Shown: positions 1 to 56,131, numbered from the stretch's first letter. The stretch is 64,000 bases of DNA from Minisyncoccota bacterium (GCA_028718635.1 JAQULK010000001.1:24626-88625), one strand, 5' to 3'. The notes: generated from the letters alone by a model not told the origin. Numbers and translations are program-made.

Positions 1-679
1 CAATGGTGAACAAGCGCTCGAAATAGTAGAGAGCTTGGTACGCACAGGAAAGATCGATGTCATCGTGGTAGACTCTGTCGCCGCACTTACTCCCAAAGAT
101 GAAATCGAAGGAGATATGGGGGCATATCATGTAGGCAAGCAAGCGCGCCTGATGTCGCAAGCGCTTCGTAAATTGACCGCTATTGTTTCTAGGTCCAAGA
201 CCGTTGTCATCTTTATAAATCAAATCCGCATGCAAATCGGAGTGATGTTCGGCAACCCAGAAACTACTCCCGGAGGAAAAGCATTGAAATTTTATACTTC
301 CATCCGGCTTGATATTCGAAAAATCGCCCAAATAAAAAAAGGAGAAGAAGTCGTAGGTTCCCGTACTCGAGTCAAAGTGGTTAAAAATAAAGTGGCCGCT
401 CCTTTCAAACAAACTGAATTTGACATCATTTACAATGAAGGAATTTCTAAAGAAGGTGAAATAATGGCGCTCGGAGAGAAATTTAAAATTATAGAAAAAA
501 GTGGAAATTCATATTTCTATTTACCCTCACCCCAACCCTCTCCCGAAGGGAGAGGGAGTCATGAGAAAATAAAGCTTGGCGTGGGTTATGATTCCACTCG
601 AAAATTCTTAAAAGAGGAAAAGAAAATTTCCGAACAAATTTTAAAAGAAATTAAGAAGAAGTTTACTGAAGAGGCGTAA
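1..679 (+). CDS. recA: Recombinase RecA, C-terminal part (5' end lies upstream of window); carries an in-frame 14-aa insert [14 protein letters not shown] encoded by a GC-rich palindrome
   Basis: Reading from pos 2 gives [32 protein letters not shown]...[28 protein letters not shown], the canonical RecA core; stop TAA at 677-679. Confidence 0.95.
524..558. repeat. GC-rich nested palindrome (family P), in-frame inside recA
   Basis: CCTCACCCCAACCCTCTCCCGAAGGGAGAGGG; about 70% GC in a 33% GC gene; encodes [12 protein letters not shown]. Confidence 0.8.
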
Positions 680-771
680 AGATATCTTTTGAAGGGGTTT
701 CGAGCGCGACGGCGCGAGAACTTCAGGATTTTTTATGCTTCAAAAAATCCGTACCGGAAAAAGATATCTTT
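678..771. repeat. Structured intergenic element, copy 1 (recA-efp spacer); 60-nt conserved core shared with 1404-1505
   Basis: AAGGGGUUUCGAGCGCGACGGCGCGAGAACUUCAGGAUUUUUUAUGCUUCAAAAAAUCCGUACCGG core flanked by the self-palindrome AAAGATATCTTT on both sides. Confidence 0.6.
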
Positions 772-817
772 ACGCCTGTAATTTGATTTTATCAATTAAT
801 CTGATAGTATATTACCT

Positions 818-1396
818 ATGGCTAAATTAGAATATAGCGACATTCGCGAGAAGAAAATAATTATACACGATGATGAGCCTTGTGAAGTGATAGAATCCCA
901 CGTCGCCCGCACCCAACAACGCAAACCGCAAAATCAGGTCAAATTGAGAAGCTTGATATCCGGCAAGGTCTTCCCTGCTACTTTTCATGCAGCCGAAACT
1001 GCCGATGAGGCGGACATCATCAAAAGAGACATTACTTTTCTTTATCATAACAAAGGAGAGTATTGGTTCTGTGAGCTAAATGATAAAAGTAAAAGATTCA
1101 AACTGGATGAAAACCTTATCGGAACTGCTGCTAAATTCTTCAAACAAAACGGAAACGTCACTGCGCTTGTCTGGGACAATGACGAAGAAGAAATAATCAT
1201 AAAAATAACTTTACCTATCAAGATGGAATTCAAGGTTAAAGAAGCTCCGCCTGCCGTCAGGGGTGACACCTCAAAAGGAGGCAATAAAGTCATCACTCTC
1301 GAAAACGGCACGACTCTAAACGCTCCAATGTTTATCAACGAAGGAGACACTGTCAGAATAAATACCGAAACAGGAGAATATGTAGAAAGAGTCTAG
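818..1396 (+). CDS. efp: Translation elongation factor P
   Basis: 192 aa; KOW-like N-term and OB-fold C-term organisation, conserved loop region (VARTQQRKPQNQVKLRSLISGKV) corresponds to the EF-P lysine loop, which is divergent here. Confidence 0.75.
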   Translation: MAKLEYSDIREKKIIIHDDEPCEVIESHVARTQQRKPQNQVKLRSLISGKVFPATFHAAETADEADIIKRDITFLYHNKGEYWFCELNDKSKRFKLDENLIGTAAKFFKQNGNVTALVWDNDEEEIIIKITLPIKMEFKVKEAPPAVRGDTSKGGNKVITLENGTTLNAPMFINEGDTVRINTETGEYVERV

Positions 1397-1403
1397 GTAA
1401 AAT

Positions 1404-1505
1404 AAAAAACAAAGTTTTTAAGGGGTTTTGCGAGCGACGGCGAGCAAATTTCAGGAATTTTTAAGCTTCAAAAATTCCGTACCGACAAAAATTTTGTTTT
1501 TTTAT
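1404..1505. repeat. Structured intergenic element, copy 2 (efp-rpsR convergent spacer; candidate bidirectional terminator / small RNA)
   Basis: Same core with compensatory change in the 9-bp hairpin (GGAUUUUUU...AAAAAAUCC vs GGAAUUUUU...AAAAAUUCC); outer inverted repeat AAAACAAAGTTTTT / AAAAATTTTGTTTT; overlaps rpsR stop. Confidence 0.6.
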
Positions 1506-1702
1506 TTTACCACAAACGGAAGCAAGCCCATAAATCTAGCGCGCTTGATGGCTGTTGAAAGTTCTCGTTGATTTTTAGCGGTAACTCCAGTGCGTTTATG
1601 GCTCATGATTTTACCATTGGGATTCAAAAATTTCTTTAGAATTTCAATATCCTTGTAATCTATGTATTTTATATTGTTAGTTGAAAAATAATCTTGTTTC
1701 AT
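1502..1702 (-). CDS. rpsR: 30S ribosomal protein S18
   Basis: 66 aa; motif [27 protein letters not shown] typical of S18; last gene of rpsF-ssb-rpsR arrangement. Confidence 0.9.
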
Positions 1703-1820
1703 CCCGTTAGAAGTAGGTCGTGGTCTTAATTTTTGTAAAACTCTTACCTACTATTTTTATGTTTGATAATAATTTATTTTATTTCCCGTTATTTACTACG
1801 ACCGCGACTTCTAACGGGAT
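1701..1820. repeat. Intergenic palindromic element (ATCCCGTTAGAAG ... CTTCTAACGGGAT termini, AT-rich centre), copy 1: ssb-rpsR spacer
   Basis: Left arm ATCCCGTTAGAAGTAGGTCGTGGTC abuts rpsR ATG (1700-1702); right arm GACCGCGACTTCTAACGGGAT ends 5 nt after ssb stop. Confidence 0.8.
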
Positions 1821-1827
1821 TTCATTT

Positions 1828-2286: not shown

Positions 2287-2403
2287 CCCGTACGAAATAG
2301 GACGCGTACGCTTACACTACGTAGATCCTTTTTGTTATTAGTAATAATTTTTATCTTTTTCATAATATTTTTTACTTTCTGCGTCCGCGATTTCGTTCGG
2401 GAT
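2285..2403. repeat. Intergenic palindromic element, divergent copy 2: rpsF-ssb spacer
   Basis: ATCCCGTACGAAATAGGACGCG ... CGCGTCC..GATTTCGTTCGGGAT; left arm abuts ssb ATG (2284-2286). Confidence 0.6.
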
Positions 2404-2417
2404 ACATATTTTTTTAA

Positions 2418-2927: not shown

Positions 2928-3011
2928 ACCAATTTTATTAAACCTTAAATATAATTAGAAAACTTTAAGTTAATTTATAATATAATCCCGAAAGGTGACT
3001 TCTAACGGGAT
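2911..3011. repeat. Intergenic palindromic element, copy 3: upstream of rpsF
   Basis: ATCCCGTTAGAAGTCA ... TGACTTCTAACGGGAT; left arm overlaps rpsF start codons. Confidence 0.75.
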
Positions 3012-3040: not shown

Positions 3041-3080
3041 TTAAAAAGTAAACCCCCACACTTATATATAAGTGTGGGGG
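3041..3080 (-). terminator. Rho-independent terminator downstream of tatD-like gene
   Basis: Perfect 14-bp stem CCCCCACACUUAUA/UAUAAGUGUGGGGG followed on minus strand by UUUACUUUUUAA. Confidence 0.7.
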
Positions 3081-3089
3081 TGAAGACTC

Positions 3090-3949: not shown

Positions 3950-3983
3950 AACCTCACCCTGCCCTCTCCTTATTAAGGAGAGG
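3950..3983. repeat. Family P palindrome, left TIR of DUF559 unit
   Basis: CCTCACCCTGCCCTCTCCTTATTAAGGAGAGGG, reverse complement of the 4359-4395 copy. Confidence 0.8.
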
Positions 3984-4335
3984 GTTTAGAATCAAGTTCA
4001 GTAATAATTTTTAAAATTACTCCATCAATGTTAACATTTATTTCATTATTCCAAAAACGAATTACTTTTATACCAAACACAGACAAATAATCTGACCTCT
4101 CTGCATCATATTCTTTATTTTCAATATGTTGTGATCCATCTATCTCAATCGCCAATTTTTTAAAAGGACAATAAAAATCCAAAACATATGGGCCAACAGA
4201 ATATTGTCTTTTTACTTTAAAACCTAGTTGATTATTTCTTACTTTATTCCAAAGAATCACTTCTTGGGGAGTTTGGGAACGTCTTAATAAGATGCGCTTA
4301 GTTAAATTCTTTGATTTATTATAGAAAACCGTCAT
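3973..4335 (-). CDS. DUF559 (Vsr-like / PD-(D/E)XK endonuclease fold) protein; C-terminus SKPSP is encoded inside the flanking GC-rich palindrome
   Basis: 120 aa; ...IEIDGSQH...GIKVIRFWNNEI pattern typical of DUF559; flanked by perfect 33-bp terminal inverted repeats (3950-3983 and 4359-4395). Confidence 0.65.
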   Translation of the reverse strand: MTVFYNKSKNLTKRILLRRSQTPQEVILWNKVRNNQLGFKVKRQYSVGPYVLDFYCPFKKLAIEIDGSQHIENKEYDAERSDYLSVFGIKVIRFWNNEINVNIDGVILKIITELDSKPSP

Positions 4336-4358: not shown

Positions 4359-4395
4359 CCCCCTCTCCTTAATAAGGAGAGGGCTGGGGTGAGGT
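4359..4395. repeat. Family P palindrome, right TIR of DUF559 unit
   Basis: CCCTCTCCTTAATAAGGAGAGGGCTGGGGTGAGG. Confidence 0.8.
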
Positions 4396-12270: not shown

Positions 12271-12911
12271 TAAAATTCCTCTTCGTTATTTTTTTCAAAA
12301 TTTTTGAATGCTATATTGGCTACGCTTATTAAATATATTTCTGGAACTCTGTGTGAACTGCCAAAATGGTTTAGCATCCCGTCGTGCACAGGAAAACATA
12401 CTTTTGGATTTATGCTTAAAGCATAATTAACGGCATTCTTGATATTAGCCCAAGGGCCCGCCACAGGCAATGCCAAAATCTCAACCGGTTTGCCAGGATT
12501 GCAAAAAGAATCTCCGGGATAAAAGAATCTTTTATCAATAAAATATCCCGTATTTAATACCTGCCCAAAATCCTGATAAATCTCTTCGTGTTTGCAATCG
12601 CAAGCTTCTATTTCTACCCCGGAAAAATCTTTTAAGGTTTTATCTTTCAAGACTTCATATTTAATTCCCGCTTTTTTCAATAATTTTCCAACTCCGTCAT
12701 TTGTAATAATAATAACATTTGGATTATTTTTTATAATTTCTTTCAATGATTCAACATGGATGTGATCTCCATGTTCGTGAGTTATTAAAATTAAATCTAC
12801 ATTTTTCTCTTGCATGTGCTCTTTTTCGGTATAAAAACCCGGATCAGTCATTATCTTTTTGCCATTCGTCTCTACCACCAAGCAACAATGCCCAAGTTTT
12901 TTGATTTTCAT
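12270..12911 (-). CDS. MBL-fold metallo-hydrolase
   Basis: 213 aa; HEHGDHI (HxHxDH) metal-binding motif; overlaps recO start and ileS stop by 1-4 nt (operon). Confidence 0.6.
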   Translation of the reverse strand: MKIKKLGHCCLVVETNGKKIMTDPGFYTEKEHMQEKNVDLILITHEHGDHIHVESLKEIIKNNPNVIIITNDGVGKLLKKAGIKYEVLKDKTLKDFSGVEIEACDCKHEEIYQDFGQVLNTGYFIDKRFFYPGDSFCNPGKPVEILALPVAGPWANIKNAVNYALSINPKVCFPVHDGMLNHFGSSHRVPEIYLISVANIAFKNFEKNNEEEF

Positions 12912-15900
12912 TTATTTATTTTATCAATTCTTACCTTAAAATACAATTCATCGATTTTTACCTCTTCCCCGTCATTTTCTTTTAACTGAATTTCCTTTGC
13001 AATTACAGCTTTTTTCAACTTTTCCTCAAAATTTTGGATGAATTTTTTACCAATATCTGAAGTTTGAACAATAAGCCTGATAAATTCACTAGGAGTTAAT
13101 CCTTTCTTCTTTCTAAAATCTTGAATTGCTCGCACAAGCTCTCGATAATCCCCCTCTTGTTTCAACTCTGAAGTGATGTTTATATCAAGCTCTACTTCGT
13201 TCTCTATATTTTTATTTTCTATAACTTCTTTTACATTTAATTCATCCTTTATAAGTTCAACATATTCTTGGTCTAAATTAAAATCTTTAATTTCTAATTT
13301 GCTAAGCGGTTGACGAACTTTTATCCCTGCTTTTTGTCTCGCCTCCAGACCTTGAGTTACAATTCTTCTTGTAATTTGCATATTTTTTACAACTTCGGGT
13401 TGAAAACTAAGTTCAGAAACAACAGGCCACTCTGCCAAATGCACGCTTCCTCCATCGCCTTCTGTTTTTAATTTCAACCAAATATCTTCGGCTGTGAATG
13501 GCGCAAAAGGTGCTAAAATTTTAACAAGAGTTTCTAATATATAATACAAAGTTTGCCTTGCCTCTTTGTCTCCATTCTTAATTCTTTCTCGTGAACGACG
13601 CAAGTACCAAGTAGAAAGATCTCCGATAAAATCTTTAATTGCTCTCACTGGTTCGAGCAATTTGTAATCGTCCATCTTTTTTGTAGATTCACTAATCAAT
13701 TCATCCAACCGCGCCAAAATCCAAATATCAAGAACGTTAGACCTCACCCCCTCGCCCCTCTCCTTATTAAGGAGAGGGGTTGGGGAGAGGTGAATTGTCT
13801 CTAAGTCTTTATCTCTATACAGTTCATAAAACGCCAGCACATTGTAAAGCAACCCAAAAACCTGGCTGTAAAGCAGGGCAACTGTCTTCTCATCAAAGTT
13901 TTTTGATTCCCCTGGCTGGTTTACTGAATACATCCAAAGACGCAAGGTGTCCACTCCGTATTTTTCTATCATTTCCCAAGGATCAACAATATTACCGAGG
14001 GATTTAGACATTTTTTTACCAACAGCATCCATCAAATGTCCGAGACAAATTACATTTTTGTATGCCTTTCCTCTCCCCATAAGGATACCAACAGCGTGTA
14101 AAGTATAAAACCATCCGCGAGTCTGGTCTATCGCTTCTGAAATAAAATCTGCGGGGTATAAAATCTTGGTCTCCTTAAATGGGTAATTATCTTGCGCAAA
14201 TGGCATACATCCGGAATCAAACCAGACATCCATCACCTCGCGAGTGCGTATCAGTTTGCCACCACATGCTTGCCCTGAGCCCACCCGATGGGCACAAATT
14301 AAATTTACTTCATCAATATATGGCTTGTGTAAATCAAGTTCAAAGTCTGCATTGTGAGGAAATGGAACAAATGGCAGCTCGCGAACTTCGGCATTATTAA
14401 ATTGCCTAAATTCTTTCACAAATGCTTCTGTGTTTGGAAAATGATAAGGCTTGTCATCAGGAGTAAACAATCCGGCGTTTACAAATAAAAGCCATGCGGG
14501 TCCACCATGTGTCACAATTATGATATTTTTATTTTTGTATTTATTTTCAAGCTCGCATAATACTGCTCCAGTACGACACGCTACCTCCGCAAAAGATTCC
14601 CCATTTGGAATTTTATGATGGAACCATCCATTGCTAATCGAAAGAACATATTTATGATATTCACTCCATAACTTTCCATCAAAATCCCCAGGGTTAAATT
14701 CCTGCAATCTATCATCAAAAATTATTTGTTCATCCTTGAGATGAAGTTTTTCGTTCAAAATATTTACTGTTTGTCTTGTGCGAGTAAAAGGAGACGAAAT
14801 AATTAAATCAATTTTTTCACTAAGAATTTTTTTAGCAACCTCTGTTACTTGTTTCTGACCTTCTGGACTCAAACTGTCATCAATTTGGTTCTTGAAACTT
14901 ACGAGACCAGCCAAGTTAGCTTCAGTTCCACCATGCCGCATCACAAAATATTTATTCCCAGACTTTTTGGTTTTATTTTTTAAGTCTTCAATGCTTCCGA
15001 TGACATCCACTCTTTTACAGGATTCGCAAATCCAAACTGGCAGGGGTGTTCCCCAATACCGCTCGCGAGAGATCGCCCAATCTTTAATTTCACGAAGCCA
15101 TTCTCCAAAACGACCATCCCGAATATGCGCCGGTTCCCAGTTTATTTCTTTATTCTCAGCTATCATTTTTTCTTTTATTTTTGGATCAGAGACTTTTATA
15201 TACCAAGAATCCCGGGCATAATAAATAAGCGCCGTATGGCAGCGCCAACAATGCGGATAGGAATGTTCATATTTTTCTTTTTTTAATAAAAGCCCACGAT
15301 GCGCTAAATCTTTTATCACATCCACAGCCACATCTTCGTCGCGTACAAATCTGCCTTCAAATATTCCTGTACCCGGTAAAAATTTTCCGTCTAGACCGAC
15401 GAGATGGTGCTTCGGCAAACCAACCTTCGTGCCAAGTTCAAAATCATCCTGCCCATACATCACTGCCGTATGCACTACTCCAGTACCGTCTGCGGTCGTC
15501 ACAAAATCCGCTCCGTAAACCTTAAAGGCTTTTTCTAATTTAGGTTTTTCATTTTCAGAAATTGTGTCCTTTAAATATGGATATAATGACTCATATTCAA
15601 GACCAATTAAATCTTTACCTTTTATCTCCTTGAGTATCTTGTATTCTCCATCTATTACGGAAAGTCTTTCTTTGGCCAAAATTAAAAATTCTTTTTCTAT
15701 TTCTATTTTTACATAATCAATATCTTCCCCCACAGCCAAAGCCACATTCCCCGGCAAAGTCCATGGAGTAGTGGTCCAAGCGAGAATGTAGGTGTTGGCG
15801 GAAATGTTACTTTTGCGGGGTGTCTCGCAGGCTGACGAGCCGAGAGGCAGCGCTCCGTCAGCAGACGGAGACAGCGACCCTGCAGAAGTAATGTTTCCGC

Positions 15901-16546
15901 TTAACACTCTAAACTTCACATACACCGATAAATCTTTTACATCTTCATATCCCTGCGCCAGCTCGTGCGAAGACAAAGCTGTTCCACAACGCGGACACCA
16001 AGGCACAACTTTATAATCTTTATAAAGTAAATTCTGTTTATTTATTTCTTTAACAACATTCCAAACAGATTCGATATATTCATTGTGATACGTCACATAT
16101 GGATGCTCTTGATCCACCCAATATCCGATGCGATGAGTAAATTTATTCCAAACATCCAAATATTCCCAAACGCTTTCTTTGCATTCTTGATTGAATTTGG
16201 CAACTCCATATTCTTCAATCGCTTTCTTAGAATTCAACCCAAGTTTTTTTTCTACTTGAAGTTCTACTGGCAACCCGTGGGTGTCCCATCCGCCTTTTCT
16301 CCGCACATGAAAACCTTGCATAGTTTTGTATCTGGGAATTGCGTCCTTGAATGCTCTAGCTTCCAGATGATGAATGCCTGGCTTGCCATTGGCCGTCGGC
16401 GGACCTTCAAAAAAAACAAATTCTCCTTGAGGCGACTTTTTTGCCAGAGATTTCTCAAAAGTTTTATTTTCTTTCCAAAACTCCAAAATCTTCTCTTCGC
16501 GCAAAGCTGATTCGCTTTTTTTATTTTGTATATTTTTTTCTTCCAT
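12908..16546 (-). CDS. ileS: Isoleucyl-tRNA synthetase (eukaryote-like type 2) with an inserted histidine-phosphatase (PGAM-like, RHG) domain and two GC-rich in-frame insertions; likely start at ATG 16544-16546 (MEEKNIQNKK)
   Basis: GPPTANGKPGIHH (HIGH-type), editing-domain WTTTPWTLPGN, DWAISRERYWGTPLP, KMSKSLGN; between the zinc knuckle ICESC and HKPYIDE lies VMRHGGTEANLAG...IIIVTHGGPAWLL, the RHG...HG signature of histidine phosphatases. Confidence 0.9.
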   Translation of the reverse strand: MEEKNIQNKKSESALREEKILEFWKENKTFEKSLAKKSPQGEFVFFEGPPTANGKPGIHHLEARAFKDAIPRYKTMQGFHVRRKGGWDTHGLPVELQVEKKLGLNSKKAIEEYGVAKFNQECKESVWEYLDVWNKFTHRIGYWVDQEHPYVTYHNEYIESVWNVVKEINKQNLLYKDYKVVPWCPRCGTALSSHELAQGYEDVKDLSVYVKFRVLSGNITSAGSLSPSADGALPLGSSACETPRKSNISANTYILAWTTTPWTLPGNVALAVGEDIDYVKIEIEKEFLILAKERLSVIDGEYKILKEIKGKDLIGLEYESLYPYLKDTISENEKPKLEKAFKVYGADFVTTADGTGVVHTAVMYGQDDFELGTKVGLPKHHLVGLDGKFLPGTGIFEGRFVRDEDVAVDVIKDLAHRGLLLKKEKYEHSYPHCWRCHTALIYYARDSWYIKVSDPKIKEKMIAENKEINWEPAHIRDGRFGEWLREIKDWAISRERYWGTPLPVWICESCKRVDVIGSIEDLKNKTKKSGNKYFVMRHGGTEANLAGLVSFKNQIDDSLSPEGQKQVTEVAKKILSEKIDLIISSPFTRTRQTVNILNEKLHLKDEQIIFDDRLQEFNPGDFDGKLWSEYHKYVLSISNGWFHHKIPNGESFAEVACRTGAVLCELENKYKNKNIIIVTHGGPAWLLFVNAGLFTPDDKPYHFPNTEAFVKEFRQFNNAEVRELPFVPFPHNADFELDLHKPYIDEVNLICAHRVGSGQACGGKLIRTREVMDVWFDSGCMPFAQDNYPFKETKILYPADFISEAIDQTRGWFYTLHAVGILMGRGKAYKNVICLGHLMDAVGKKMSKSLGNIVDPWEMIEKYGVDTLRLWMYSVNQPGESKNFDEKTVALLYSQVFGLLYNVLAFYELYRDKDLETIHLSPTPLLNKERGEGVRSNVLDIWILARLDELISESTKKMDDYKLLEPVRAIKDFIGDLSTWYLRRSRERIKNGDKEARQTLYYILETLVKILAPFAPFTAEDIWLKLKTEGDGGSVHLAEWPVVSELSFQPEVVKNMQITRRIVTQGLEARQKAGIKVRQPLSKLEIKDFNLDQEYVELIKDELNVKEVIENKNIENEVELDINITSELKQEGDYRELVRAIQDFRKKKGLTPSEFIRLIVQTSDIGKKFIQNFEEKLKKAVIAKEIQLKENDGEEVKIDELYFKVRIDKINK
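13742..13797. repeat. Family P full-length nested palindrome, in-frame inside ileS
   Basis: CCTCACCCCCTCGCCCCTCTCCTTATTAAGGAGAGGGGTTGGGGAGAGGTGAATT; encodes ...LTSPQPLSLIRRGARG... segment of IleRS. Confidence 0.75.
15817..15888. other. Second GC-rich hairpin-containing in-frame insertion in ileS editing domain
   Basis: GCTGACGAGCCGAGAGGCAGCGCTCCGTCAGC nested in GCAGG...CCTGC; encodes SGNITSAGSLSPSADGALPLGSSACETPRKSN absent from canonical IleRS. Confidence 0.5.
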
Positions 16547-16760
16547 AATTTTGTATTTTAAAAAATAAAACCCGTCCTCATGCAAATAAAAATAATTGCA
16601 CAAGGACGGGCTTCGCCGTGGTACCACCTTGCTTTTTACCCGCCTTTGGCGGGGCTTCTCATTTAAAGGGTTCTACTTTATTGCTAGGTCTTGCCTAGCA
16701 ATATTTCTTCCCAAAGCTCCGAGGCGATACCCTCTTCAACGCTTACTATTACAATATAAC
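16547..16760 (-). promoter_or_regulatory. T-box-like riboswitch leader of ileS (T-box sequence + intrinsic terminator/antiterminator)
   Basis: Minus-strand RNA reads ...GCAAGGUGGUACCACGGCGAAG (T-box consensus AGGGUGGNACCGCGG) immediately followed by hairpin CCCGUCCUUGUGCAAUUAUUUUUAUUUGCAUGAGGACGGG + UUUUAUUUUUU, then ATG of ileS about 25 nt downstream. Confidence 0.55.
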
Positions 16761-19239: not shown

Positions 19240-20646
19240 CTATTTTTTCTTCTCTTTCAATTTTCCACCACAAGCAACCACAAAATCATTATGCATCTTT
19301 TTTAGATCATTTTCTTTGAGTTTCCCGAAAACTTTGACCGCCTCTCTCGACTTTTTCTTAAAAGAAATATCTTTTTCTAAAACCTCCGGATGCACTTTAA
19401 ACGCATGCTCATTGATGCCAAGCAGAAAAAGACCTGAGAGCCTGCGCACTCGAGAAAGCGCCACATAGCCTTGCCCAAATTCAAACACTTGCGACAAATC
19501 CATCACTGCGGCATCCATGCTCATCCCCTGGCTCTTGTGCACTGTAATAGCCCAAGCCAGCCGAAGCGGAATCTGAGTTATTTGCGCGCGAACTTTTCCA
19601 TTTTCTTCCACTATCCAATCCGAGGGCGGAATGGTTATTTTCCTTCCATTTTTAGTTTTAATAATCGGGTACCCGCTGAATTCTTCGAAACCTCTCACCA
19701 CGCCAAGCGTGCCATTTACAAATTTTTCTTTTTGATTATTTTTTGTGCACATTACCACTGCGCCGATTTTAAGCTCCAAATTTTCCGGCGACAGGCACCC
19801 TTTCTTAAGAGCCTCTACCACTTTGTCGTTTCCGCTCCCGGACATTTTAAATAATTTTACATCCTCCTCTAATTTTGCAAGCTCTATATTGTTTACCCGA
19901 TCCACATCTATATTGTGTGAAAAAAGTTTGGTAATATTCAGGGCTTCTTTGGGCATATCATCATGATCAATCTGCCGAGCAGTTATAAATTTTCTACGCA
20001 TTTGTGAAAAATCATTAGCGCGGATGCCGGAGAGCACCGAAAGAAAGTCTTTATCGTCTTGGCGATGCTGTTCTGTCAAATAACACACGACCAATCCTGC
20101 CCTCTCCCAAGCACTAGATTCATAAGCAAAAATCCCCAGCGGTTGAACCGCTGAAATAAGTGAGCTCTGCTTGTTTTTATTCAGATTATTTTCTTTGTCA
20201 TCTTTTCTTATAATCGGAGGCAATTGAAAAAAATCGCCCACGAAAATTATTTGGATGCCACCGAACGGTTCATCATTTTGTTTTATTTCTCGGCAAACCA
20301 TATCCACCATATCAAGCATATTGGAGGAGAGCATAGAAACCTCATCAATGATCAAAATCCGCGTTCGCCTTACGCGCTTGCAGACATATTCACTGCTCGC
20401 AATTTTATCCAAATCATATTTGTCTAATTTTGTCCTGATGCCGATACCGCTCCAAGAATGAATCGTCATCCCGCCGATATGCGTCGCGGCGATCCCCGTG
20501 GAAGCGGTGATCGCAGGAGTTATATCGCGAGTGCGCAAATAATTCACAAAATTATTTATAGTGTGCGTCTTTCCCGCCCCCGGCTCGCCCGTCAAAAAAA
20601 CATTTACACCGGTTTTTAAAATATTCAAAGCTTCATTTTGAGTCAC
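19240..20646 (-). CDS. PIF1/RecD-family SF1B DNA helicase
   Basis: 468 aa; Walker A GEPGAGKTH, Walker B IIDEVSM, FVGDFFQLPPI, Pif1 signature LTEQHRQ, AITVHKSQGMSMD. Confidence 0.8.
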   Translation of the reverse strand: MTQNEALNILKTGVNVFLTGEPGAGKTHTINNFVNYLRTRDITPAITASTGIAATHIGGMTIHSWSGIGIRTKLDKYDLDKIASSEYVCKRVRRTRILIIDEVSMLSSNMLDMVDMVCREIKQNDEPFGGIQIIFVGDFFQLPPIIRKDDKENNLNKNKQSSLISAVQPLGIFAYESSAWERAGLVVCYLTEQHRQDDKDFLSVLSGIRANDFSQMRRKFITARQIDHDDMPKEALNITKLFSHNIDVDRVNNIELAKLEEDVKLFKMSGSGNDKVVEALKKGCLSPENLELKIGAVVMCTKNNQKEKFVNGTLGVVRGFEEFSGYPIIKTKNGRKITIPPSDWIVEENGKVRAQITQIPLRLAWAITVHKSQGMSMDAAVMDLSQVFEFGQGYVALSRVRRLSGLFLLGINEHAFKVHPEVLEKDISFKKKSREAVKVFGKLKENDLKKMHNDFVVACGGKLKEKKK

Positions 20647-29905: not shown

Positions 29906-30436
29906 TTATTTTTTCAATTTTATCGGCGCCTCTTCCGCAAAACTAGTCGCTATTTCGTCCGCTCTTTCGTTATGCTTGTCTCCATTGTGTCCTTTCACAT
30001 AAGTCCATTTTATTTTCTCCCTGTTTGGCAATTTTGCAAACTCTTCAGTAAGTTTATGTAGTTCTTCCCAAAGAGCGCGATTTAAAACTGGCTCTTTTTT
30101 GGCATTACGCCATCCATTCTTTTGCCAATTAAAAATCCATTCCGTAATTCCCAAAATCACATATTTAGAATCAGAAACAATTTCCACATCATCCCCAACC
30201 AAGCCTTGCTTAAATAAAAACTTCAACGCTTCAATTGGCGCAGTCAATTCCATTTGATTGTTTGTCGCGTGTTCCACTCCTCCCCCGATTTCAAAGACCC
30301 CCTCCTCACTCCTCCCCCTTAACAAGGGGGAGGTTGGGTAGGGGTGAATTATAAAAACAGCCCCCCAGCCAGCTTTCCCCGGGTTCCCTTTCGCCGCTCC
30401 ATCCGTATAAATTTTCATACTATATTCTTTTTGCAT
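29906..30436 (-). CDS. rnhA: Ribonuclease HI with in-frame palindrome-encoded insert
   Basis: 176 aa; IYTDGAAKGNPGKAGWGAV...TNNQMELTAPIEAL...HNGDKHNERAD matches the RNase H fold; about 20 extra residues (HPYPTSPLLRGRSEEGVFE) between beta-strands. Confidence 0.8.
   Translation of the reverse strand: MQKEYSMKIYTDGAAKGNPGKAGWGAVFIIHPYPTSPLLRGRSEEGVFEIGGGVEHATNNQMELTAPIEALKFLFKQGLVGDDVEIVSDSKYVILGITEWIFNWQKNGWRNAKKEPVLNRALWEELHKLTEEFAKLPNREKIKWTYVKGHNGDKHNERADEIATSFAEEAPIKLKK
30296..30350. repeat. Family P palindrome, in-frame inside rnhA
   Basis: CCTCACTCCTCCCCCTTAACAAGGGGGAGGTTGGGTAGGGGTGAATT. Confidence 0.75.
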
Positions 30437-43718: not shown

Positions 43719-43866
43719 CCCCCTAAATCCCCCTTGTCAGGGGGACTACCTCACCCCTTGCTTTCCCCCTCTCCTTAATAAGGAGAGGGGCTGGGGAGAG
43801 GTGAATTCCTCCCCTGACAAGGGGAGGGCAGGAGGGGTTGGGAGGGGGTCAGGAGGGGTTGAATTT
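43719..43866. repeat. Composite of three tandem family-P palindromes in the pilB upstream intergenic region
   Basis: CCCCCTTGTCAGGGGG ... CCCCTCTCCTTAATAAGGAGAGGGGCTGGGGAGAGGTGAATT ... CCTCCCCTGACAAGGGGAGG ... GGGAGGGGGTCAGGAGGGG. Confidence 0.8.
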
Positions 43867-47418: not shown

Positions 47419-47740
47419 TGAATTTAATATTTTTTATTTTTGTAATGGGAGATGCTTCGGATGGTTGACTCAGAATTTTGAGTCGCTCTTCATCAGTCAT
47501 GTTTGGATTTGCTGGAGGAATATTTGATGGTTTTTGTAATATTTCTAGCCGCTGTTCATCTGTAAGAGACGGGGGAGATTTCGGCCGAGAAATAAAGTAA
47601 AAAATAAGAAGACCAAAAAGAATAATAATTAAAATAGCAATCGCTATTTTTTGATATCTAATTAAATGACTTTTAATCATGGATTCAATTATAAAGCAAA
47701 AGAAAGATGATGTGAAATAGGGGGTGTGGATAACCCCCAC
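47408..47740 (-). CDS. Small hypothetical membrane-anchored protein
   Basis: 110 aa; one TM helix; repeated TDE(Q/E)RL(E/K)IL motif; overlaps downstream gene by 11 nt. Confidence 0.35.
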   Translation of the reverse strand: MGVIHTPYFTSSFFCFIIESMIKSHLIRYQKIAIAILIIILFGLLIFYFISRPKSPPSLTDEQRLEILQKPSNIPPANPNMTDEERLKILSQPSEASPITKIKNIKFNEN

Positions 47741-48235
47741 ACCTTTCTTGGTATCGCTTTTTTTCTGCTAATAAAAATAGTTAATAATAATATTTATTTT
47801 AATATAAATTGTAATCGTAGTGGTACTTCTAATGAAAAAGCAGAATAATACCAAGAAAGGTGTGGGGGATAACCCTTTCACTATACTTTTGCTCAAAAGG
47901 TGTGGAGGTCATATAATAATTATTATGTATTATGTTTATATTCTTAAGAGTTTAAAAGATGGAAAACTATATGTTGGATCAACCAATGATCTGAAGCGAA
48001 GACTTTCGGAACACAATAACGGACTTAATCGTTCAACAAAAGCTAGACGTCCTTTTGAGCTTCGATATTATGAAGCTTGTGCTAGTGAAAGTGATGCCCG
48101 AACTAGAGAATATAATCTAAAGAAAGATGGAAAAGCACTTGGGCAACTTAAAAGAAGAATTTCCGAAAGTCTTAAATAAATCCCCACAACCTATTTGGAT
48201 AGGTGTGGGGATAAAATGAAAGGTGTGGATAACTA
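47715..48235. repeat. Cluster of GAAAGGTGTGG(G)GATAAC repeats (two contain perfect DnaA-box 9-mers TGTGGATAA) flanking the GIY-YIG gene
   Basis: Copies at about 47716-47745 (inverted pair), 47857-47875, 48185-48200 (inverted), 48204-48214, 48221-48235; AT-rich stretch 47760-47830. Confidence 0.5.
47925..48179 (+). CDS. Stand-alone GIY-YIG nuclease-domain protein (YhbQ-like)
   Basis: YYVYILKSLKDGKLYVGSTNDLKRRLSEHN = GIY-YIG signature; ORF track starts at 47820 but the internal ATG gives the typical 85-aa protein. Confidence 0.7.
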   Translation: MYYVYILKSLKDGKLYVGSTNDLKRRLSEHNNGLNRSTKARRPFELRYYEACASESDARTREYNLKKDGKALGQLKRRISESLK

Positions 48236-49988: not shown

Positions 49989-49998
49989 GGTCGATCTC

Positions 49999-50045
49999 AA
50001 ATGGGCTCCCTTCAGCATGAAGGGAGCCCATTATTACTTTAATTT
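49999..50045 (+). terminator. Rho-independent terminator after secreted-protein gene
   Basis: 15-bp stem AAUGGGCUCCCUUCA / UGAAGGGAGCCCAUU, loop GCA, U-rich tail. Confidence 0.7.
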
Positions 50046-50131: not shown

Positions 50132-50716
50132 ATGGACAGTTTAATAGCAAAATTATATCAATCACCAAAAACAATCCTATCTAACAAGGATTTGGCTTTG
50201 ATTTGGCAGGAAAATAACGAAGAAAGTTTATACGCCAAAACTGCCTACTATGTAAAACAAAAAGCTCTAATCAGATTGACTCGGGGAGTTTTTGCTAAAA
50301 AAAAAGATTACAATCCAAAAGAATTGGCAACCAGTATTTACACTCCGTCTTATATCAGCTTCGAAACAGTTTTGAGAGAGGCCGGTGTCATTTTCCAACA
50401 CTACGATACAATATTTGTAGCTTCTAAATGGCCTAAAACAATGACTATAGATAAAAATACTTTTACCTTCAGAAAATTGAAAGATGCTATCCTGTTTAAT
50501 TCCACTGGTGTTGTCAATAAAGATAACTACAGCGTGGCCACCGCAGAAAGGGCATTCTTGGATATGATTTATTTATTTCCGAATTATTACTTTGATAATT
50601 TGAAATCGATCGACTGGGGTAAATGCAATGAATTAGTAAAAATTTACAACAACAAAGAATTAATAAAACGATTGAATAAATATCGCAAAAATTATCAAGA
50701 AAAAAATGTTGAATAG
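50132..50716 (+). CDS. abiEi: AbiEi-like antitoxin/transcriptional regulator (type IV TA, abortive-infection system)
   Basis: 194 aa; N-terminal wHTH-like segment with LIRLTRGVF resembling the AbiEi_4 RGxY motif; immediately upstream of and overlapping the AbiEii-like gene. Confidence 0.5.
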   Translation: MDSLIAKLYQSPKTILSNKDLALIWQENNEESLYAKTAYYVKQKALIRLTRGVFAKKKDYNPKELATSIYTPSYISFETVLREAGVIFQHYDTIFVASKWPKTMTIDKNTFTFRKLKDAILFNSTGVVNKDNYSVATAERAFLDMIYLFPNYYFDNLKSIDWGKCNELVKIYNNKELIKRLNKYRKNYQEKNVE

Positions 50717-51419
50717 GCAAAAACATCAATTAATAATGAGTCGGATTTTGAAGGACATCTATACCGATATTACGATCAGTCCGCTCTTGGGATTCAAGGG
50801 TGGCACTTGCGCCTATTTTTTCTATAATCTGCCAAGGTTCTCGGTGGACTTGGATTTTGATTTGTTGGTGGTGAATGACGAAAATCAAAAAATAGTATTT
50901 GAAAAAATTGTTGCTATCTTAAAAAGATACGGAGAAGTCAAAGATCAATACATCAAGAGATTTACTGTCTTTGCTCTGCTCTCCTACGGTGATGACGACC
51001 ATAATATCAAGGTTGAAATTAATGTTAGAAAATTGATAGAAAACATTCAAGACCACTATGAGATGAAGGAATATCTTGGCATCTCCATGTTTGTCGCCAA
51101 AAAAGATTATTTGTTTGCGAGCAAACTCTCGGCTTTGACCTTGAGAAGCGAAACCGCAATGAGAGACATTTATGATATTCACTTTTTTGCCAAAAATAGT
51201 TGGGATATTAATGCTGAAGTTATCAAAGAAAGAACCGGCAAAACCACCAAGGAATACTTGGCTGCTTGCATAGCATTTATAGAAAAAGTAAAGGGCAATC
51301 AAATTTTGCAGGGATTGGGGGAACTTGTTGATAGTGAAAAAGAAAAAGCGTGGATTAGAAATCATTTGAAATCCGACTCTATCTTCATGCTGAAAAATTA
51401 TATGTCGGTAATAAAATAA
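50706..51419 (+). CDS. abiEii: AbiEii/AbiGii-family nucleotidyltransferase toxin (DUF1814)
   Basis: 237 aa; LLGFKGGTCAYFFYNLPRFSVDLDFDL matches the GGTAL...RFSEDLDF nucleotidyltransferase motif of DUF1814. Confidence 0.65.
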   Translation: MLNRQKHQLIMSRILKDIYTDITISPLLGFKGGTCAYFFYNLPRFSVDLDFDLLVVNDENQKIVFEKIVAILKRYGEVKDQYIKRFTVFALLSYGDDDHNIKVEINVRKLIENIQDHYEMKEYLGISMFVAKKDYLFASKLSALTLRSETAMRDIYDIHFFAKNSWDINAEVIKERTGKTTKEYLAACIAFIEKVKGNQILQGLGELVDSEKEKAWIRNHLKSDSIFMLKNYMSVIK

Positions 51420-51536: not shown

Positions 51537-52743
51537 TGCAAAAAAATTTATGTTAGACATAAAAACATTCAGGTCAGCGTTGGAACAATTGGAGGAAGAG
51601 AGGAAAATCCCAAAAGAAAAAATACTGGAAGCTATAGAGCAAGCGATGGCCGCTGCTTATAAAAAAGATTATGGCAAGAAAGGACAAATCATCCGAGCAA
51701 AGTTCGATATGGAAACTGGTAAAACAGATTTTTTCCAAGTAAAAATCGTGGTAGACGAAAGTATCGCCATTATGGATGACGAAAGACCCCTACCCAACCT
51801 CCCCCTTAATAAGGGGGAGGAGCAAGGAGGGGGTGCAGACGAGCGCGTGCATTTTAATTCCGAACATCACATTCTTCTCGAAGACGCAAAAAAAATTACA
51901 AAGGGAGCCGAGCTAAATGACGAAATAATTTTTCCACTAGAACAAAAAGACAATTATGGACGCATCGCCGCACAGACCGCCAAGCAAGTCATCATCCAGA
52001 AGATCCGCGAGGCAGAACGCACTTCTATTATAGATGAATATGGCACCAAAGAGGGCGAGGTTATTTCCGGCATAGTGCAAAAAGTAGAAAGAGGAAACGT
52101 CTATGTCGATTTCAACAGAGCTACCGGAATATTGCCTACCGAAGAACAAATCCCAGGAGAATATTGGACTCGCGGACAAAGAATCCGAGCTTATCTTTAT
52201 AGCGTGGAAGACACTCATCGAGGCATCAACTTGCGCCTTTCTCGAACTCATCCCAAATTTGTAGAAAAACTTTTTGCCATAGAAGCGCCAGAGATAGAAA
52301 ACGGCATAGTAGAGATTAAATCTATTGCGCGTGAAGCAGGCGCTCGTTCAAAAATTGCGGTTTATTCAAACGACGAGCACATCGATCCAGTCGGCTCTTG
52401 CGTCGGCCAAAAAGGAACCAGAGTAAACACTATCACCACCGAACTTTCCGGAGAAAAAATCGACATCATTCCTTGGTCCTCTGATCCTTCTCAATTCATT
52501 TCTAATTCTCTTTCTCCAGCCAAAGTTATTTCGATTGTTATAGACGAGAAAGAACACAAGGCCATCGTGGAAGTGGCCAACGATCAGCTGTCGCTCGCCA
52601 TCGGCAAAGGCGGACAAAATGTGCGCCTCGCCGCCAAACTGACCGGCTGGAGGATAGACATAAAAGGCGATGATTTGTCTGCGCAAACAGAAAAAGAAGT
52701 TGTTAAAAATGAAGAAGACGTTAAGGAAGATGAATCCCGTTAG
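51526..52743 (+). CDS. nusA: Transcription termination/antitermination factor NusA (probable true start ATG about 51551); contains in-frame palindrome-encoded insert RPLPNLPLNKGEEQGGG
   Basis: NusA N-domain, S1 domain (GEVISGIVQKVERGNVYVDF), two KH domains (GSCVGQKGTRV, LAIGKGGQNVRLAAKLTGW); stop TAG inside repeat arm. Confidence 0.85.
   Translation: MLSGAKKFMLDIKTFRSALEQLEEERKIPKEKILEAIEQAMAAAYKKDYGKKGQIIRAKFDMETGKTDFFQVKIVVDESIAIMDDERPLPNLPLNKGEEQGGGADERVHFNSEHHILLEDAKKITKGAELNDEIIFPLEQKDNYGRIAAQTAKQVIIQKIREAERTSIIDEYGTKEGEVISGIVQKVERGNVYVDFNRATGILPTEEQIPGEYWTRGQRIRAYLYSVEDTHRGINLRLSRTHPKFVEKLFAIEAPEIENGIVEIKSIAREAGARSKIAVYSNDEHIDPVGSCVGQKGTRVNTITTELSGEKIDIIPWSSDPSQFISNSLSPAKVISIVIDEKEHKAIVEVANDQLSLAIGKGGQNVRLAAKLTGWRIDIKGDDLSAQTEKEVVKNEEDVKEDESR
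51787..51836. repeat. Family P palindrome, in-frame inside nusA
   Basis: CCCCTACCCAACCTCCCCCTTAATAAGGGGGAGGAGCAAGGAGGGGGTG. Confidence 0.75.
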
Positions 52744-52887: not shown

Positions 52888-54910
52888 GAATCAATTTTTA
52901 TCGTTTGCGATCATTAGTTCGTTTGTCGCTATTGTTTACGGTTTGTTTTTGGCTAAATCAATATTAAAAAAGAGTCCTGGAAATACTCGCATGCAGGAAA
53001 TTGCGAAAGCAATTCAAGAAGGGGCTAGCGCATATTTAAATAAACAATATAAAACTATCAGCATTATTGCGGTGATCCTTTTCTTTATCATCGGTTTGGT
53101 GCCAAAACTCGGATGGACTATGGCTTTTGGATTTTTAGTCGGAGCTATTTTTTCTGGTCTTGCAGGCTATATAGGTATGAACGTATCTGTCAGAGCAAAT
53201 GTCCGCACGACCGAAGCTGCTAAGAGTGGCATAAATGAAGCGCTTTCCCTGGCCTTTAAGGGCGGTACAGTTACCGGACTTTTAGTAGTCGGCTTGGCTC
53301 TCTTGGGCGTAACAGCTTTTTATGCAATTACAAAAGATGTCCCTGCGCTTGTAGGGCTTGGTTTCGGCGCTTCCCTTATTTCAATCTTTGCAAGATTGGG
53401 CGGAGGAATTTTTACAAAAGCAGCCGATGTCGGCGCTGACCTTGTAGGCAAGCTTGAAGCAGGCATTCCAGAAGACGATCCAAGAAACCCCGGAGTTATC
53501 GCAGACAATGTCGGGGACAATGTCGGGGATTGCGCTGGCATGGCAGCTGATTTATTTGAAACTTATGCTGTCACCTCAGTCGCTACGATGTTGCTCGGCT
53601 CGCTTCTTTTTGTCGGTTTTGAAAATGCAGTCATCTACCCTCTCGTAATAGGCGGTATGGCAATATTCGCATCTATTATCGGTACTTGGTTTGTGCGCTT
53701 AGGCAAAAGCAAGGAGGGTCAAGAAAATATAATGGGCGCCTTATACAAAGGCCTCATCGCCTCTGGTGTCATCGCAGCTGTTTTATTTTATCCTGTTACC
53801 AATATTCTTATGGCAGGAAATGGAAAATATGCAGTAATAGATTTATTCATTTGCTCTTTGGTTGGTCTCTTTGTTACTGGAGCGCTTGTCGTCATTACAG
53901 AATATTTCACTTCTACAAAATACTATCCCGTAAAATCTATCGCGGAAGCATCGGCTTCCGGTCATGGCACAAATGTTATTCAAGGTTTGGCTATTTCCAT
54001 GAAAGCTACTGCCTTGCCTTTGATCACAATCGTTTTAGGAATATTGATTAGTTATAGTTTTGGCGGACTTTATGGAATCGCCGTAGCTGCGATGTCTATG
54101 CTTTCAATGACAGGGATAATTGTGGCGATAGATGCCTATGGTCCTATCACCGACAACGCGGGAGGTATTGCAGAAATGGCAGAACTTCCAGAATCAGTTC
54201 GAAACATCACTGATCCTTTAGATGCAGTTGGAAACACTACCAAGGCTGTTACAAAAGGTTATGCTATCGGTTCTGCTGGACTTGCCGCACTGGTTCTTTT
54301 TGCCTCTTATACAGAAGAAATTATAAAAGCTGGAAAAAGTATCAATTTTGATCTAAGTAATCCATTTGTAATTATGGGACTCTTTTTAGGAGGACTTCTT
54401 CCCTACTATTTCGGAGCGCTTTGCATGGAAGCAGTGGGAAAAACTGCCGGAAAAGTGGTAGAAGAAATCCGAAGACAATTCAGAGAAATAAAAGGAATTA
54501 TGGAAGGCACTGCAAAACCGGATTACGCAAAAGCTGTTTCAATCATTACGGGTGCCGCTATCAAGCAAATGATCTTGCCCGCCCTTATACCAGTCCTTGC
54601 TCCAATTTTAGTGATTGTTCTTTTTGGAAAAGAAAAAGGGTTTGTTGTTTTAGGCGGTCTTCTTGTCGGCTCCATCGTTACAGGACTTTTCGTTGCCATT
54701 TCGATGACCTCAGGCGGAGGCGCATGGGACAATGCTAAAAAACACATAGAACAAGGCAATCACGGAGGCAAAGGAAGTGAGGCTCATAAAGCTGCAGTTA
54801 CTGGTGATACTGTCGGAGATCCTTACAAAGACACAGCCGGCCCTGCCATCAACCCTATGATAAAAATCCTAAACATAGTTGCCTTGCTTTTAGTTATTTT
54901 ATTGATGTAA
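52886..54910 (+). CDS. hppA: Membrane-bound proton/sodium-translocating pyrophosphatase
   Basis: About 675 aa, 15-16 TM; [35 protein letters not shown] signature; start placed at ATG directly after TCTAACGGG (MNQFLSF). Confidence 0.9.
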
Positions 54911-55020
54911 TCCCGTTAGAGGCCGCGGTCGCATATGGGAAGAAGAATTAGAAAATTATTATTAATTTAATTTAGGCAGTATGTAAGTTCAATGCGAACG
55001 CGACCTGCCTCTAACGGGAT
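54910..55020. repeat. Intergenic palindromic element, copy 7: hppA-tig spacer
   Basis: hppA TAA overlaps ATCCCGTTAGAGGCCGCGGTCGC ... GCGACCTGCCTCTAACGGGAT directly followed by tig ATG; arm change AGAAG->AGAGG compensated by CTTCT->CCTCT. Confidence 0.8.
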
Positions 55021-56131
55021 GAAAATTACTGTAAACAAATTACCAAAAAGCGAAGTAGAAATCGAAGGTGAAATAGACGCTGAGATTTTTGAATCTTATT
55101 ACGAGAAAGCGCTCAAGAAAATCGGCGAGAATTTTGAGACGGACGGATTCCGCAAGGGCAAAGTGCCGGAAAATATTTTACTTTCCAAAATTCCAGAAAT
55201 CAGCATCTTGGAAGAAATGGCAGAGATGGCTTTGAGCGAACATTATCCTAAAATAATTGAGAGTGAAAAAATAGATGCCATAAGTCGCCCAGAAATTTCA
55301 ATTATAAAATTAGCGCGCAAGAATCCTTTAGGATTTAAAATAAAAACCGCCATCTTGCCGGAGATGAAACTTCCTGACTATAAAAATATCTCTAAGAAAA
55401 TAACTTCTGAAATTACTGATGCTGAAAAAAATATCGTCGTCTCTGATGAAGATTTAGAAGCCACCATTATGGACATCCGTAAATCTCGCGCACCCAAGGT
55501 GCATATGGCAACCCCTCCCCAACCCCTCCCCGAAGGGGAGGGGGGAATTTCTTCCTCCCCTTCGGGGAGGACTGAGGAGGGGTCGGAGAAGGCGGGGGAT
55601 GAGGTGGAACCCGAACTCCCTGCATTTGATGATGAATTTGTAAAAGGTCTTGGTCCTTTCAAAGATGTGGAGGATTTCAAAACAAAACTAAAAGAAAATA
55701 TAAAACTAGAAAAAGAAAACCAACAAAAAGAAAAGACCAGATTGAAAATTATAGAAAAAATAGTCGAGGATAGCGTTATGGATTTGCCTGAGATTTTGGT
55801 TGAAGTTGAACTAGATAAAATTCTATACCGCATGGAATCCGACATTACTCAAATGGGATTGAAATTTGAAGACTATTTGAAACATTTAAATAAAACCAAA
55901 GAGGATTTGAGAAAAGAATTCAGAACGGATGCCGAGAAGAAAGCCAAGCTTGCTCTTATCTTAAATGAGATAGCTAAAGTTGAAAAAATAGTCGCCGACC
56001 CCGAGCAAGTCGCCAACGAAGTCGCAGCTATTTTGGAACACTATAAAGACGCCGACCCCGAGCGCGCTCGCATGCACGCCGAAAACGTCCTCACCAACGA
56101 AAAAATATTTCAGTTTCTAGAAAACCAGTAA
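55019..56131 (+). CDS. tig: Trigger factor (ribosome-associated chaperone); contains about 30-aa in-frame GC-rich insert
   Basis: MKITVNKLPKSEVEIEGEI... trigger-factor N-domain; start at ATG directly after TCTAACGGG; insert TPPQPLPEGEGGISSSPSGRTEEGSEKAGDE. Confidence 0.8.
   Translation: MKITVNKLPKSEVEIEGEIDAEIFESYYEKALKKIGENFETDGFRKGKVPENILLSKIPEISILEEMAEMALSEHYPKIIESEKIDAISRPEISIIKLARKNPLGFKIKTAILPEMKLPDYKNISKKITSEITDAEKNIVVSDEDLEATIMDIRKSRAPKVHMATPPQPLPEGEGGISSSPSGRTEEGSEKAGDEVEPELPAFDDEFVKGLGPFKDVEDFKTKLKENIKLEKENQQKEKTRLKIIEKIVEDSVMDLPEILVEVELDKILYRMESDITQMGLKFEDYLKHLNKTKEDLRKEFRTDAEKKAKLALILNEIAKVEKIVADPEQVANEVAAILEHYKDADPERARMHAENVLTNEKIFQFLENQ
55511..55600. repeat. Two tandem family-P palindromes, in-frame inside tig
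   Basis: CCCCTCCCCAACCCCTCCCCGAAGGGGAGGGG and CCTCCCCTTCGGGGAGG ... GGAGGGGTCGGAG. Confidence 0.75.

Follow-up and report, generated by a model that had tools for sequence, protein, structure and literature searches.

What brings short GC-rich palindromes into the reading frames of core genes, and which gene goes with them, is the question raised by a 64,000-nucleotide stretch of DNA from Minisyncoccota bacterium (GCA_028718635.1 JAQULK010000001.1:24626-88625; here called the window). An earlier account made from the sequence alone (the sequence-only reading) had described a family of nested palindromes lying in frame within recA, ileS, rnhA, recJ, nusA, and tig and had likened them to the palindromic elements of Rickettsia. 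A second component of the window is a small nuclease gene of the DUF559 family that is bracketed by inverted copies of the same palindrome. We consider it probable that the elements are selfish palindromes resembling the REP/RAYT pairs of other bacteria, that they are compatible with open reading frames (ORFs) through arms free of stop codons, and that the DUF559 nuclease is their likely cognate protein.

The genes of the window were identified by Pfam matches, and its content is one of housekeeping genes. Judged by the names (Paceibacterota/Nomurabacteria) borne by the top relatives of its RNase H, the host is evidently a bacterium of the Candidate Phyla Radiation (CPR), as the sequence-only reading had supposed. 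Pyrimidine/purine (Y/R) hairpins were collected with a detector that required a 5' arm of C and T only with at least five C, a perfect stem of at least 7 bp, and a loop of 3 to 11 nt. Thirteen were detected in the window, compared with 0 in each of 20 shuffles. Seven are intragenic and fall in six genes (recA, ileS, rnhA, recJ, nusA, and tig, the last with two), so that a GC-rich hairpin is present at every site previously named. Five more (3962-3984, 4361-4383, and three within 43728-43827) are intergenic copies of the family; the regions that contain them (3953-3985, 4361-4395, and 43728-43861) had been overlooked by the sequence-only reading, as had the link to the flanked DUF559 gene. The thirteenth hairpin (50006-50026, in the region 49995-50040) was set aside as lying outside the family, since it resembles an ordinary terminator.

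The family consists of short (approximately 20- to 60-bp) GC-rich nested palindromes whose 5' arm is all pyrimidine and whose 3' arm is all purine. A core CCCTCTCC-loop-GGAGAGGG is often nested within CCTCACCC...GGGGTGAGG, outer arms that give the element terminal inverted repeats at its ends, and there is no coding capacity of its own. Stem variants are compensated on both arms (CCCTCTCC/GGAGAGGG, CCTCCCCC/GGGGGAGG, and CCCCTCC/GGAGGGG), and the loops also vary among window copies (GAA, TTAACAA, and TTAATTAA). The single consensus quoted by the sequence-only reading fits two copies exactly, the one in ileS and the intergenic one at 43751-43803; the remainder are variants. Predicted folding energies range from −18 to −62 kcal/mol, with z scores of −4.4 to −8.8 for the intragenic copies, and most elements with their outer arms fold as nested hairpins. 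The whole window measures 37.7% GC rather than the 33% first given as background, and the six intragenic spans have a GC fraction of 0.59 to 0.69, against the 65 to 70% claimed for the elements. An Rfam scan of the window gave no family at the gathering score, with chance-level matches only around the DUF559 cassette; PADLOC gave only weak partial matches to restriction-type nuclease domains, which imply no defense system; and Pfam gave no transposase, integrase, or Y1 transposase (Y1_Tnp) among the ∼58 window ORFs.

The half-elements at 3953-3985 and 4361-4395 are reverse complements of one another and bracket the DUF559 gene, the last codons of which (KPSP), together with the stop codon, lie within the hairpin of the former. 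The encoded protein matches Pfam PF04480 with an E value of 4.5e-33 (113.8 bits against a cut-off of 20.6; positions 9-108 of 109), the NCBIfam YcjD model NF007294 over its full length with an E value of 7e-23 (under the curated cut-off), and PDB entry 3HRL with an E value of 6e-19. A solo element resembles these two ends, joined via one hairpin. The gene order metG-DUF559-tatD is kept in the window and in comparison loci L001, L002, L005, L013, and L032, with second copies in L006 and L007, and DUF559 identity across the loci with this order (46 to 86%) is at least that of the neighboring genes. The DUF559 gene is therefore a stable, selected resident that does not hop, and the repeats are the mobile part.

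DUF559 genes and hairpins of this type are associated well beyond the window. Eighty loci encoding relatives of the window DUF559 protein were taken from species-representative genomes, fetched by peptide patterns that do not overlap the hairpins; all comparison loci used here are contig fragments rather than whole genomes. Hairpins were found within 150 bp upstream of the gene at 57 of the 80 loci, downstream at 61, and on both sides at 51, against a background elsewhere in the loci of 0.109 per kb. The loops of the flanking hairpins differ between loci, and where they match exactly within a locus, they are reverse complementary in 17 cases and in the same orientation in 3. Exact reverse-complement loops occur in only 17 of 51 loci, and an alignment-based test was needed. 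By local alignment, 57% of DUF559 genes reached a flanking inverted-repeat score of at least 36, compared with only 1.5% of the 610 control ORFs taken from these loci. In 20 of 79 loci (for example, L047 and L048), the higher score belongs to direct repeats of whole composite units. All six secondary DUF559 copies, which had not been selected for, have hairpins of this kind no more than 200 bp away, and in five they occur on both sides.

The stem and the types of hairpin follow the gene as well. A stem CCCTCTCC(C)/(G)GGAGAGGG with an outer GGGTGAGG surrounds DUF559 genes in Patescibacteria, Alphaproteobacteria, Bacteroidota, Melainabacteria, and Elusimicrobia. Paralogs within one genome have different hairpin types, and orthologs across genomes have the same type. 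The hairpin core is shared by 50% of DUF559 pairs at 70% identity or above and by less than 1% of pairs below it, a contrast that at orthologous loci reflects in part mere relatedness. In 14 of 63 cases, compared with 1.1 expected by permutation, the core of a dispersed hairpin is identical to that of the hairpin flanking DUF559 in the same locus. Two flank architectures occur. One, that of the window and its close relatives, has the gene within a single element and flanked by duplicated hairpins; the other, seen in most of the remaining loci, has it between two elements. A general rule placing the DUF559 stop codon in the hairpin loop was tried and rejected, as it is true of 9 of 78 loci (the closest relatives of the window included); in 30 further loci of the 78, a hairpin starts no more than 40 nt past the stop codon. 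A full-text literature search, which included DUF559 alone as a term, returned no paper linking DUF559 to palindromes or describing such elements in CPR bacteria.

A separate feature was seen in a subset of the DUF559-flanking hairpins (L023, L035, L038, L064, L068, L072, L079, and E. coli L161 at 7219), in which CCCTCGCC is paired with GGAGAGGG and would leave a G·A mispair if extruded. The mispair is at the same stem position in several phyla, with a mirror form on the other flank, and is of interest given the Vsr-like (mismatch-nicking) fold of DUF559.

From this association, we infer that DUF559 is the cognate enzyme of the repeats. Acting on the hairpin in single-stranded or cruciform form, the enzyme would bind or nick it and thereby drive or sustain its spread, a role equivalent to that of the RAYT transposase for REP/REPIN elements. 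Hairpin placement could also be explained with DUF559 as a frequent neighbor only, if host processes alone (template switching at hairpins, slippage, or gene conversion between copies) spread or keep the palindromes; in variants of this explanation, DUF559 would be a selfish or homing-type nuclease gene that lands by palindromes, or a user of the hairpins as transcript end, insulator, or stabilizer. Such an explanation agrees with the lack of visible target-site duplications and of a transposase in the window, with the stable place of the gene between metG and tatD in many lineages, with the two flank architectures, and with the hairpins close after the stop codon in those 30 loci and around it in the 9, as for a 3'-end structure. 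Generic terminators, however, would not keep the CCCTCTCC/GGAGAGGG stem and outer GGGTGAGG from Patescibacteria to Alphaproteobacteria, Bacteroidota, Melainabacteria, and E. coli. Moreover, the hairpins have no T-run, their types are paralog specific within one genome, and control ORFs of the same loci are not so flanked. With regard to homing, the ORF is retained between metG and tatD across lineages, all sampled sites being filled, which is not the pattern of a homing endonuclease gene that comes and goes at a conserved target site or is housed in an intron or intein. Overall, we consider host processes alone, in any of these forms, an unlikely source of the pattern.

Several points nevertheless weigh against DUF559 as the cognate enzyme. 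PD-(D/E)xK nucleases are not known to perform strand transfer alone. No direct repeats that would mark target-site duplications were seen by eye at the ileS, rnhA, nusA, recJ, and 43751 copies. Perfect hairpins on both sides are lacking at 29 of the 80 DUF559 loci. A resident DUF559 gene fits a RAYT-like gene but would fit a plain housekeeping gene as well. Finally, at the RNase H turn and the RecJ linker described below, inserts from several subfamilies, as well as unrelated kinds of repeat, occupy the same sites; this repeated use may represent tolerance, site preference, or gene conversion.

The segments within genes are insertions and not ancestral linkers. The host proteins were confirmed by Pfam as RecA, IleRS, RNase H, RecJ, NusA, and trigger factor, and each insert has domain matches on either side. 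As the sequence-only reading had held, the host reading frame is maintained: every host ORF is open, and the net gain is in whole codons (+13 in rnhA, +10 in recJ, and +14 in recA, counted against relatives or solved structures), a whole-codon insert length being implied by the intact genes. Its further statement that every element length is a multiple of three fails for its own coordinates, as the six spans measure 35, 56, 55, 50, 50, and 90 nt and only one qualifies. Two of the checks that it had proposed, alignment with orthologs and mapping onto structures, both support insertion: the nearest RNase H and RecJ relatives and one RecA relative lack the inserts, the RNase H insert maps to coil at the tip of a beta hairpin, and the inserted segments are missing from the solved chains of RecA, RNase HI, and NusA.

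For RNase H, the six nearest relatives (distance of 0.07 to 0.125 with the insert masked) have no GC-hairpin insert; five of them have a 3-residue turn (MDK, GDK, or MNK), and P0001 has a different insert. A near-identical HPYP[TA]SPL.RGRS.EG is present at the same turn in dozens of more distant relatives, and at least 30 changes of insert state are needed on a neighbor-joining tree. A single ancient insertion was rejected because the nearest neighbors of the query are without the insert. Comparison of filled and empty rnhA sites showed a replacement of the three turn codons rather than a clean insertion. In the AlphaFold model, the fold is kept (predicted template modeling score, 0.84), residues 30-44 are coil, and the block at residues 31-40 has a mean predicted local distance difference test (pLDDT) score of 57. 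Unrelated inserts were also observed at the beta2-beta3 turn among loci L081 to L160, namely, KLKVESEKLKV (AAGTTGAAAGT-type repeats), NYELGITNYK (AATTACGAATTA repeats), and SQNSGEPRV-type segments, and L127 and L132 have a second hairpin insertion site deeper into RNase H.

The other hosts gave similar results. RecJ of the nearest relatives (L081 to L083) lacks the insert, and other lineages have different hairpin subfamilies at the same linker. For RecA, the 78%-identical protein of L013 shows an exact 14-residue gap, the 89%-identical protein of L002 has a different GC-rich insert there, and the window protein has 14 extra residues relative to solved RecA chains. The alignment of NusA to solved chains is broken across query residues 83-103. 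Trigger factor (tig, 54992-56131) has N- and C-terminal domains and no peptidyl-prolyl isomerase (PPIase) domain; an ∼58-residue linker in place of the latter holds both hairpin copies. Intragenic copies thus occupy surface loops or interdomain linkers. Comparisons of close relatives indicate that copies have been gained and lost between them, and the open frames imply that the inserts would be translated with the host protein.

Two further explanations concern the intragenic copies only. That the segments are ancestral linkers or assembly artifacts is scarcely credible. The window probably comes from a metagenome assembly, and nothing else speaks for an artifact; inserts are found at the same sites in independent assemblies (NCBI, JGI, and ENA), the host frames are open, and orthologs of unrelated bacteria as well as the nearest relatives lack the inserts. 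It is also very improbable that the intragenic hairpins are useful to the host, whether by pausing ribosomes at domain boundaries through mRNA structure or by serving as functional flexible loops. Several copies do lie at interdomain linkers (RecJ, IleRS, and trigger factor), and the peptide HPYP[TA]SPL.RGRS.EG recurs in many RNase H lineages. Against this, the closest relatives lack the inserts, and the same family is found in intergenic DNA and uses all three codon phases in genes. Furthermore, unrelated AT-rich repeats at the same RNase H turn elsewhere point to tolerance rather than function, and the RNase H insert is a low-confidence loop.

Tolerance of the copies has a simple basis in the composition of the arms. 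Arms of only C and T or only A and G cannot contain TAA, TAG, or TGA in any frame; since the element is palindromic, the arms are stop-free on both strands, and only the loop can therefore end translation. The loop TTAATAA has a stop codon in one phase of three. The recA copy and both tig hairpins are read in precisely that phase, and their loops are instead short and free of stops (GAA in recA and the first tig hairpin and TTC in the second). The arms can encode only Pro/Ser/Leu/Phe, followed by Gly/Glu/Arg/Lys, so the encoded loops are predicted to be flexible and largely hydrophilic. Across the window and 160 related loci, 50 of 97 hairpins not adjoining DUF559 are inside long ORFs, compared with 76% of random sites; the intragenic hairpins are distributed 14/16/20 over the three codon phases, all of which are used, and 76% of the hairpin-encoded residues are P, G, S, L, R, or E. 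With stop-free, loop-coding arms, a frame-preserving insertion in a permissive loop would be nearly neutral and would thus survive, and in a gene-dense genome, the majority of landing sites would be genic.

A comparable arrangement is present in E. coli. The DUF559 gene ycjD ends in ...SPSP-stop inside a degenerate copy, and CCCCTCGCCCCTCTGGGGAGAGGGTTAGGGTGAGGGG lies 170 bp downstream. Every one of the 5426 complete E. coli genomes contains dispersed copies of CCCCTCGCCCCTCTGGGGAGAGGGTTAGGGTGAGGGG, at a median of 18 and at most 32 places per genome. The motif common to the E. coli repeat and the window family is CCCTC(T/G)CCCC-loop-GGGGAGAGGG, followed by GGGTGAGGG. The repeat by ycjD is probably BoxC. 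BoxC is listed as a 56-bp repeat with ∼32 copies (PMC2267715). The YcjD model covers the window protein along its entire length, and both genes end inside a copy, the one at ycjD being degenerate; the E. coli locus differs from the window in that there is one clear copy only near ycjD, the repeat upstream of the gene being a different sequence. In E. coli K-12 (L161, 7300-7420), a partial duplicate of the ycjD 3' end (GAGACGGTGCTGGAGAATATTC...) separates the gene from the repeat copy downstream, and a separate 17-bp inverted repeat, TCACCTCATTCTGACAA...TTGTCAGAATGAGGTGA, carries the ycjD start codon in its right arm.

We put forward, as a real possibility short of an expectation, that DUF559/YcjD Vsr-fold nucleases are the cognate enzymes of pan-bacterial Y/R-arm palindromic repeats, including the E. 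coli repeat by ycjD (probably BoxC). These would form a second, mechanistically distinct counterpart of REP/RAYT, and the coding regions of gene-dense CPR genomes would have been colonized because the arms are stop-free. Little is known of the function of DUF559/YcjD or of the origin of BoxC-like repeats; the DUF559 link, running from Patescibacteria to E. coli, is a candidate answer to both and is testable in E. coli. Were DUF559 the cognate enzyme across bacteria, the interest of the system would be the greater.

REP/RAYT is among the closest known systems. Nunvar in 2010, Bertels and Rainey in 2011, and Ton-Hoang in 2012 reportedly described its pattern of dispersed short imperfect palindromes with a resident gene flanked by inverted copies. 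RAYTs have been described as stable residents and REPINs as the mobile part. The family described here likewise comprises dispersed short imperfect palindromes and one resident gene that is inherited vertically and lies between inverted copies of its own repeat type, and several pairs of gene and repeat type are possible per genome in both. The two differ in that the flanked gene is a DUF559 Vsr-fold nuclease and not a Y1 HUH transposase and in that the present elements have no GTAG-type REP head. Nor are they exclusively extragenic, as 7 of the 13 window hairpins and 50 of 97 overall are in ORFs.

In-frame palindromic repeats in core genes are best known from Rickettsia. Rickettsia palindromic elements (RPEs) are one-family palindromic repeats that are found both in intergenic DNA and in frame in unrelated housekeeping genes, with an added peptide that is compatible with the fold (PMC10969869). 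The present family, too, is both intergenic and in frame inside core genes. As an RPE-like phenomenon, meaning one palindromic repeat family with lineage-specific in-frame inserts and intergenic copies, the description in the sequence-only reading was sound; its parallel with Rickettsia applies in the sense of "works like" and fails as membership. RPEs measure ∼100 to 150 bp, occur in Rickettsia, and have a conserved peptide per family, whereas the elements here measure 20 to 60 bp (90 bp for the tig pair), outside the RPE length range, have Y/R arms, use all three phases, and occur in Paceibacteria. RPEs are not known to have a partner gene, in contrast to the DUF559 gene that the present repeats flank.

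MITEs (miniature transposable elements bounded by inverted repeats; Correia/NEMIS, ERIC, and cyanobacterial elements) are small, dispersed, and non-coding, with inverted-repeat ends and occasional in-frame host fusions (PMC10969869). The present elements are similar in their terminal inverted repeats and lack of coding capacity and dissimilar in that they have no visible target-site duplication, are much shorter, and have no parent insertion sequence or transposase in the window. The GC clusters of yeast mitochondria are mobile GC-rich palindromes of an AT-rich genome, and a number of them lie in frame in a protein gene (var1). These likewise are GC-rich palindromes in frame; they differ in their organelle host, in their unrelated sequence, and in having no associated nuclease gene of the DUF559 type.

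Relative to the RPE and REP/RAYT precedents, what is new here is a different element family, in a different phylum, with a flanked gene of a different protein superfamily. The occurrence of a different and much shorter family in CPR bacteria means that in-frame palindromes are not a Rickettsia oddity, and stop-free, loop-coding arms provide a simple reason why inserts are tolerated. For annotation, such inserts lengthen CPR proteins and can pass for lineage-specific linkers. The coordinates and makeup of the window copies are collected in Table 1.

Table 1. Palindromic elements of the Y/R family and the DUF559 gene in the window
Feature	Position (nt)	Strand	Composition	Product, peptide, or match	Predicted folding
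recA C-terminal domain, in-frame copy	524-558		Left outer arm CCTCACCCC and hairpin CCCTCTCCC-GAA-GGGAGAGGG; right outer arm absent		
Half-element, 3' end of DUF559 gene	3953-3985		Outer arm CCTCACCC-TG-hairpin CCCTCTCC-TTATTAA-GGAGAGGG		
DUF559 nuclease gene	3973-4335	-		120 amino acids, YcjD-like, Vsr-fold PD-(D/E)xK; Pfam PF04480	
Half-element upstream of DUF559 gene	4361-4395		Hairpin CCCTCTCC-TTAATAA-GGAGAGGG-CT-outer arm GGGGTGAGG; inverted copy of 3953-3985		
ileS, in frame, right before anticodon-binding domain	13742-13797		Full nested element	SPTPLLNKERGEGV	−37 kcal/mol, z −8.2
rnhA, in-frame copy, tip of beta2-beta3 hairpin	30296-30350			HPYPTSPLLRGRSEEG	
recJ, in-frame copy, linker between DHHA1 and OB domains	30790-30839		Hairpin CCCCTCC-TTAATTAA-GGAGGGG, second adjacent hairpin GCTCCGA-TTCAGA-TCGGAGC, then GGGGTGG	TTPLRSESEHPSLIKEGK	
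Intergenic cluster, three copies, between T2SSE ATPase and Big_2 protein genes	43728-43861		Small hairpin 43728-43745; full nested element 43751-43803; hairpin and G-rich tail 43806-43861		
nusA N-terminal domain, in-frame copy	51787-51836			RPLPNLPLNKGEEQGGG	
tig, in frame	55511-55600		Two inverted hairpin copies	TPPQPLPEGEGGISSSPSGRTEEGSE	−61.8 kcal/mol

Several other features of the window were observed. A small GIY-YIG nuclease gene (ORF 47820-48179, likely start 47925) is bracketed by another palindrome family, CCCCCACAC/GTGTGGGGG (47720-48235), which has a solo copy at 3052-3081, is outside the Y/R family, and has a 9-mer that occurs 4 times against 0.15 expected; this suggests that the combination of a small nuclease gene and cognate palindromes recurs in the genome. 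The IleRS protein (ileS, 12908-16627; 1239 amino acids) has a histidine-phosphatase (His_Phos_1) domain inserted at residues 561-719, and a GC-rich patch of the same gene (15813-15880, at least 70% GC) with the hairpin CTCCGTC-AGCA-GACGGAG, not of the Y/R-arm type, may represent an inserted element of another kind. In the ComEC gene, GC-rich patches at 27893-27939 and 28365-28396 share GCCTCGCCCGT..GGCTA.GGCC.AGGGA and may represent an intragenic repeat or an internal protein repeat. Genes for an AbiEii-type toxin (50706-51419), a Fic-domain protein (56488-57450), and a PIF1-like helicase (19240-20646) were found among the housekeeping genes.

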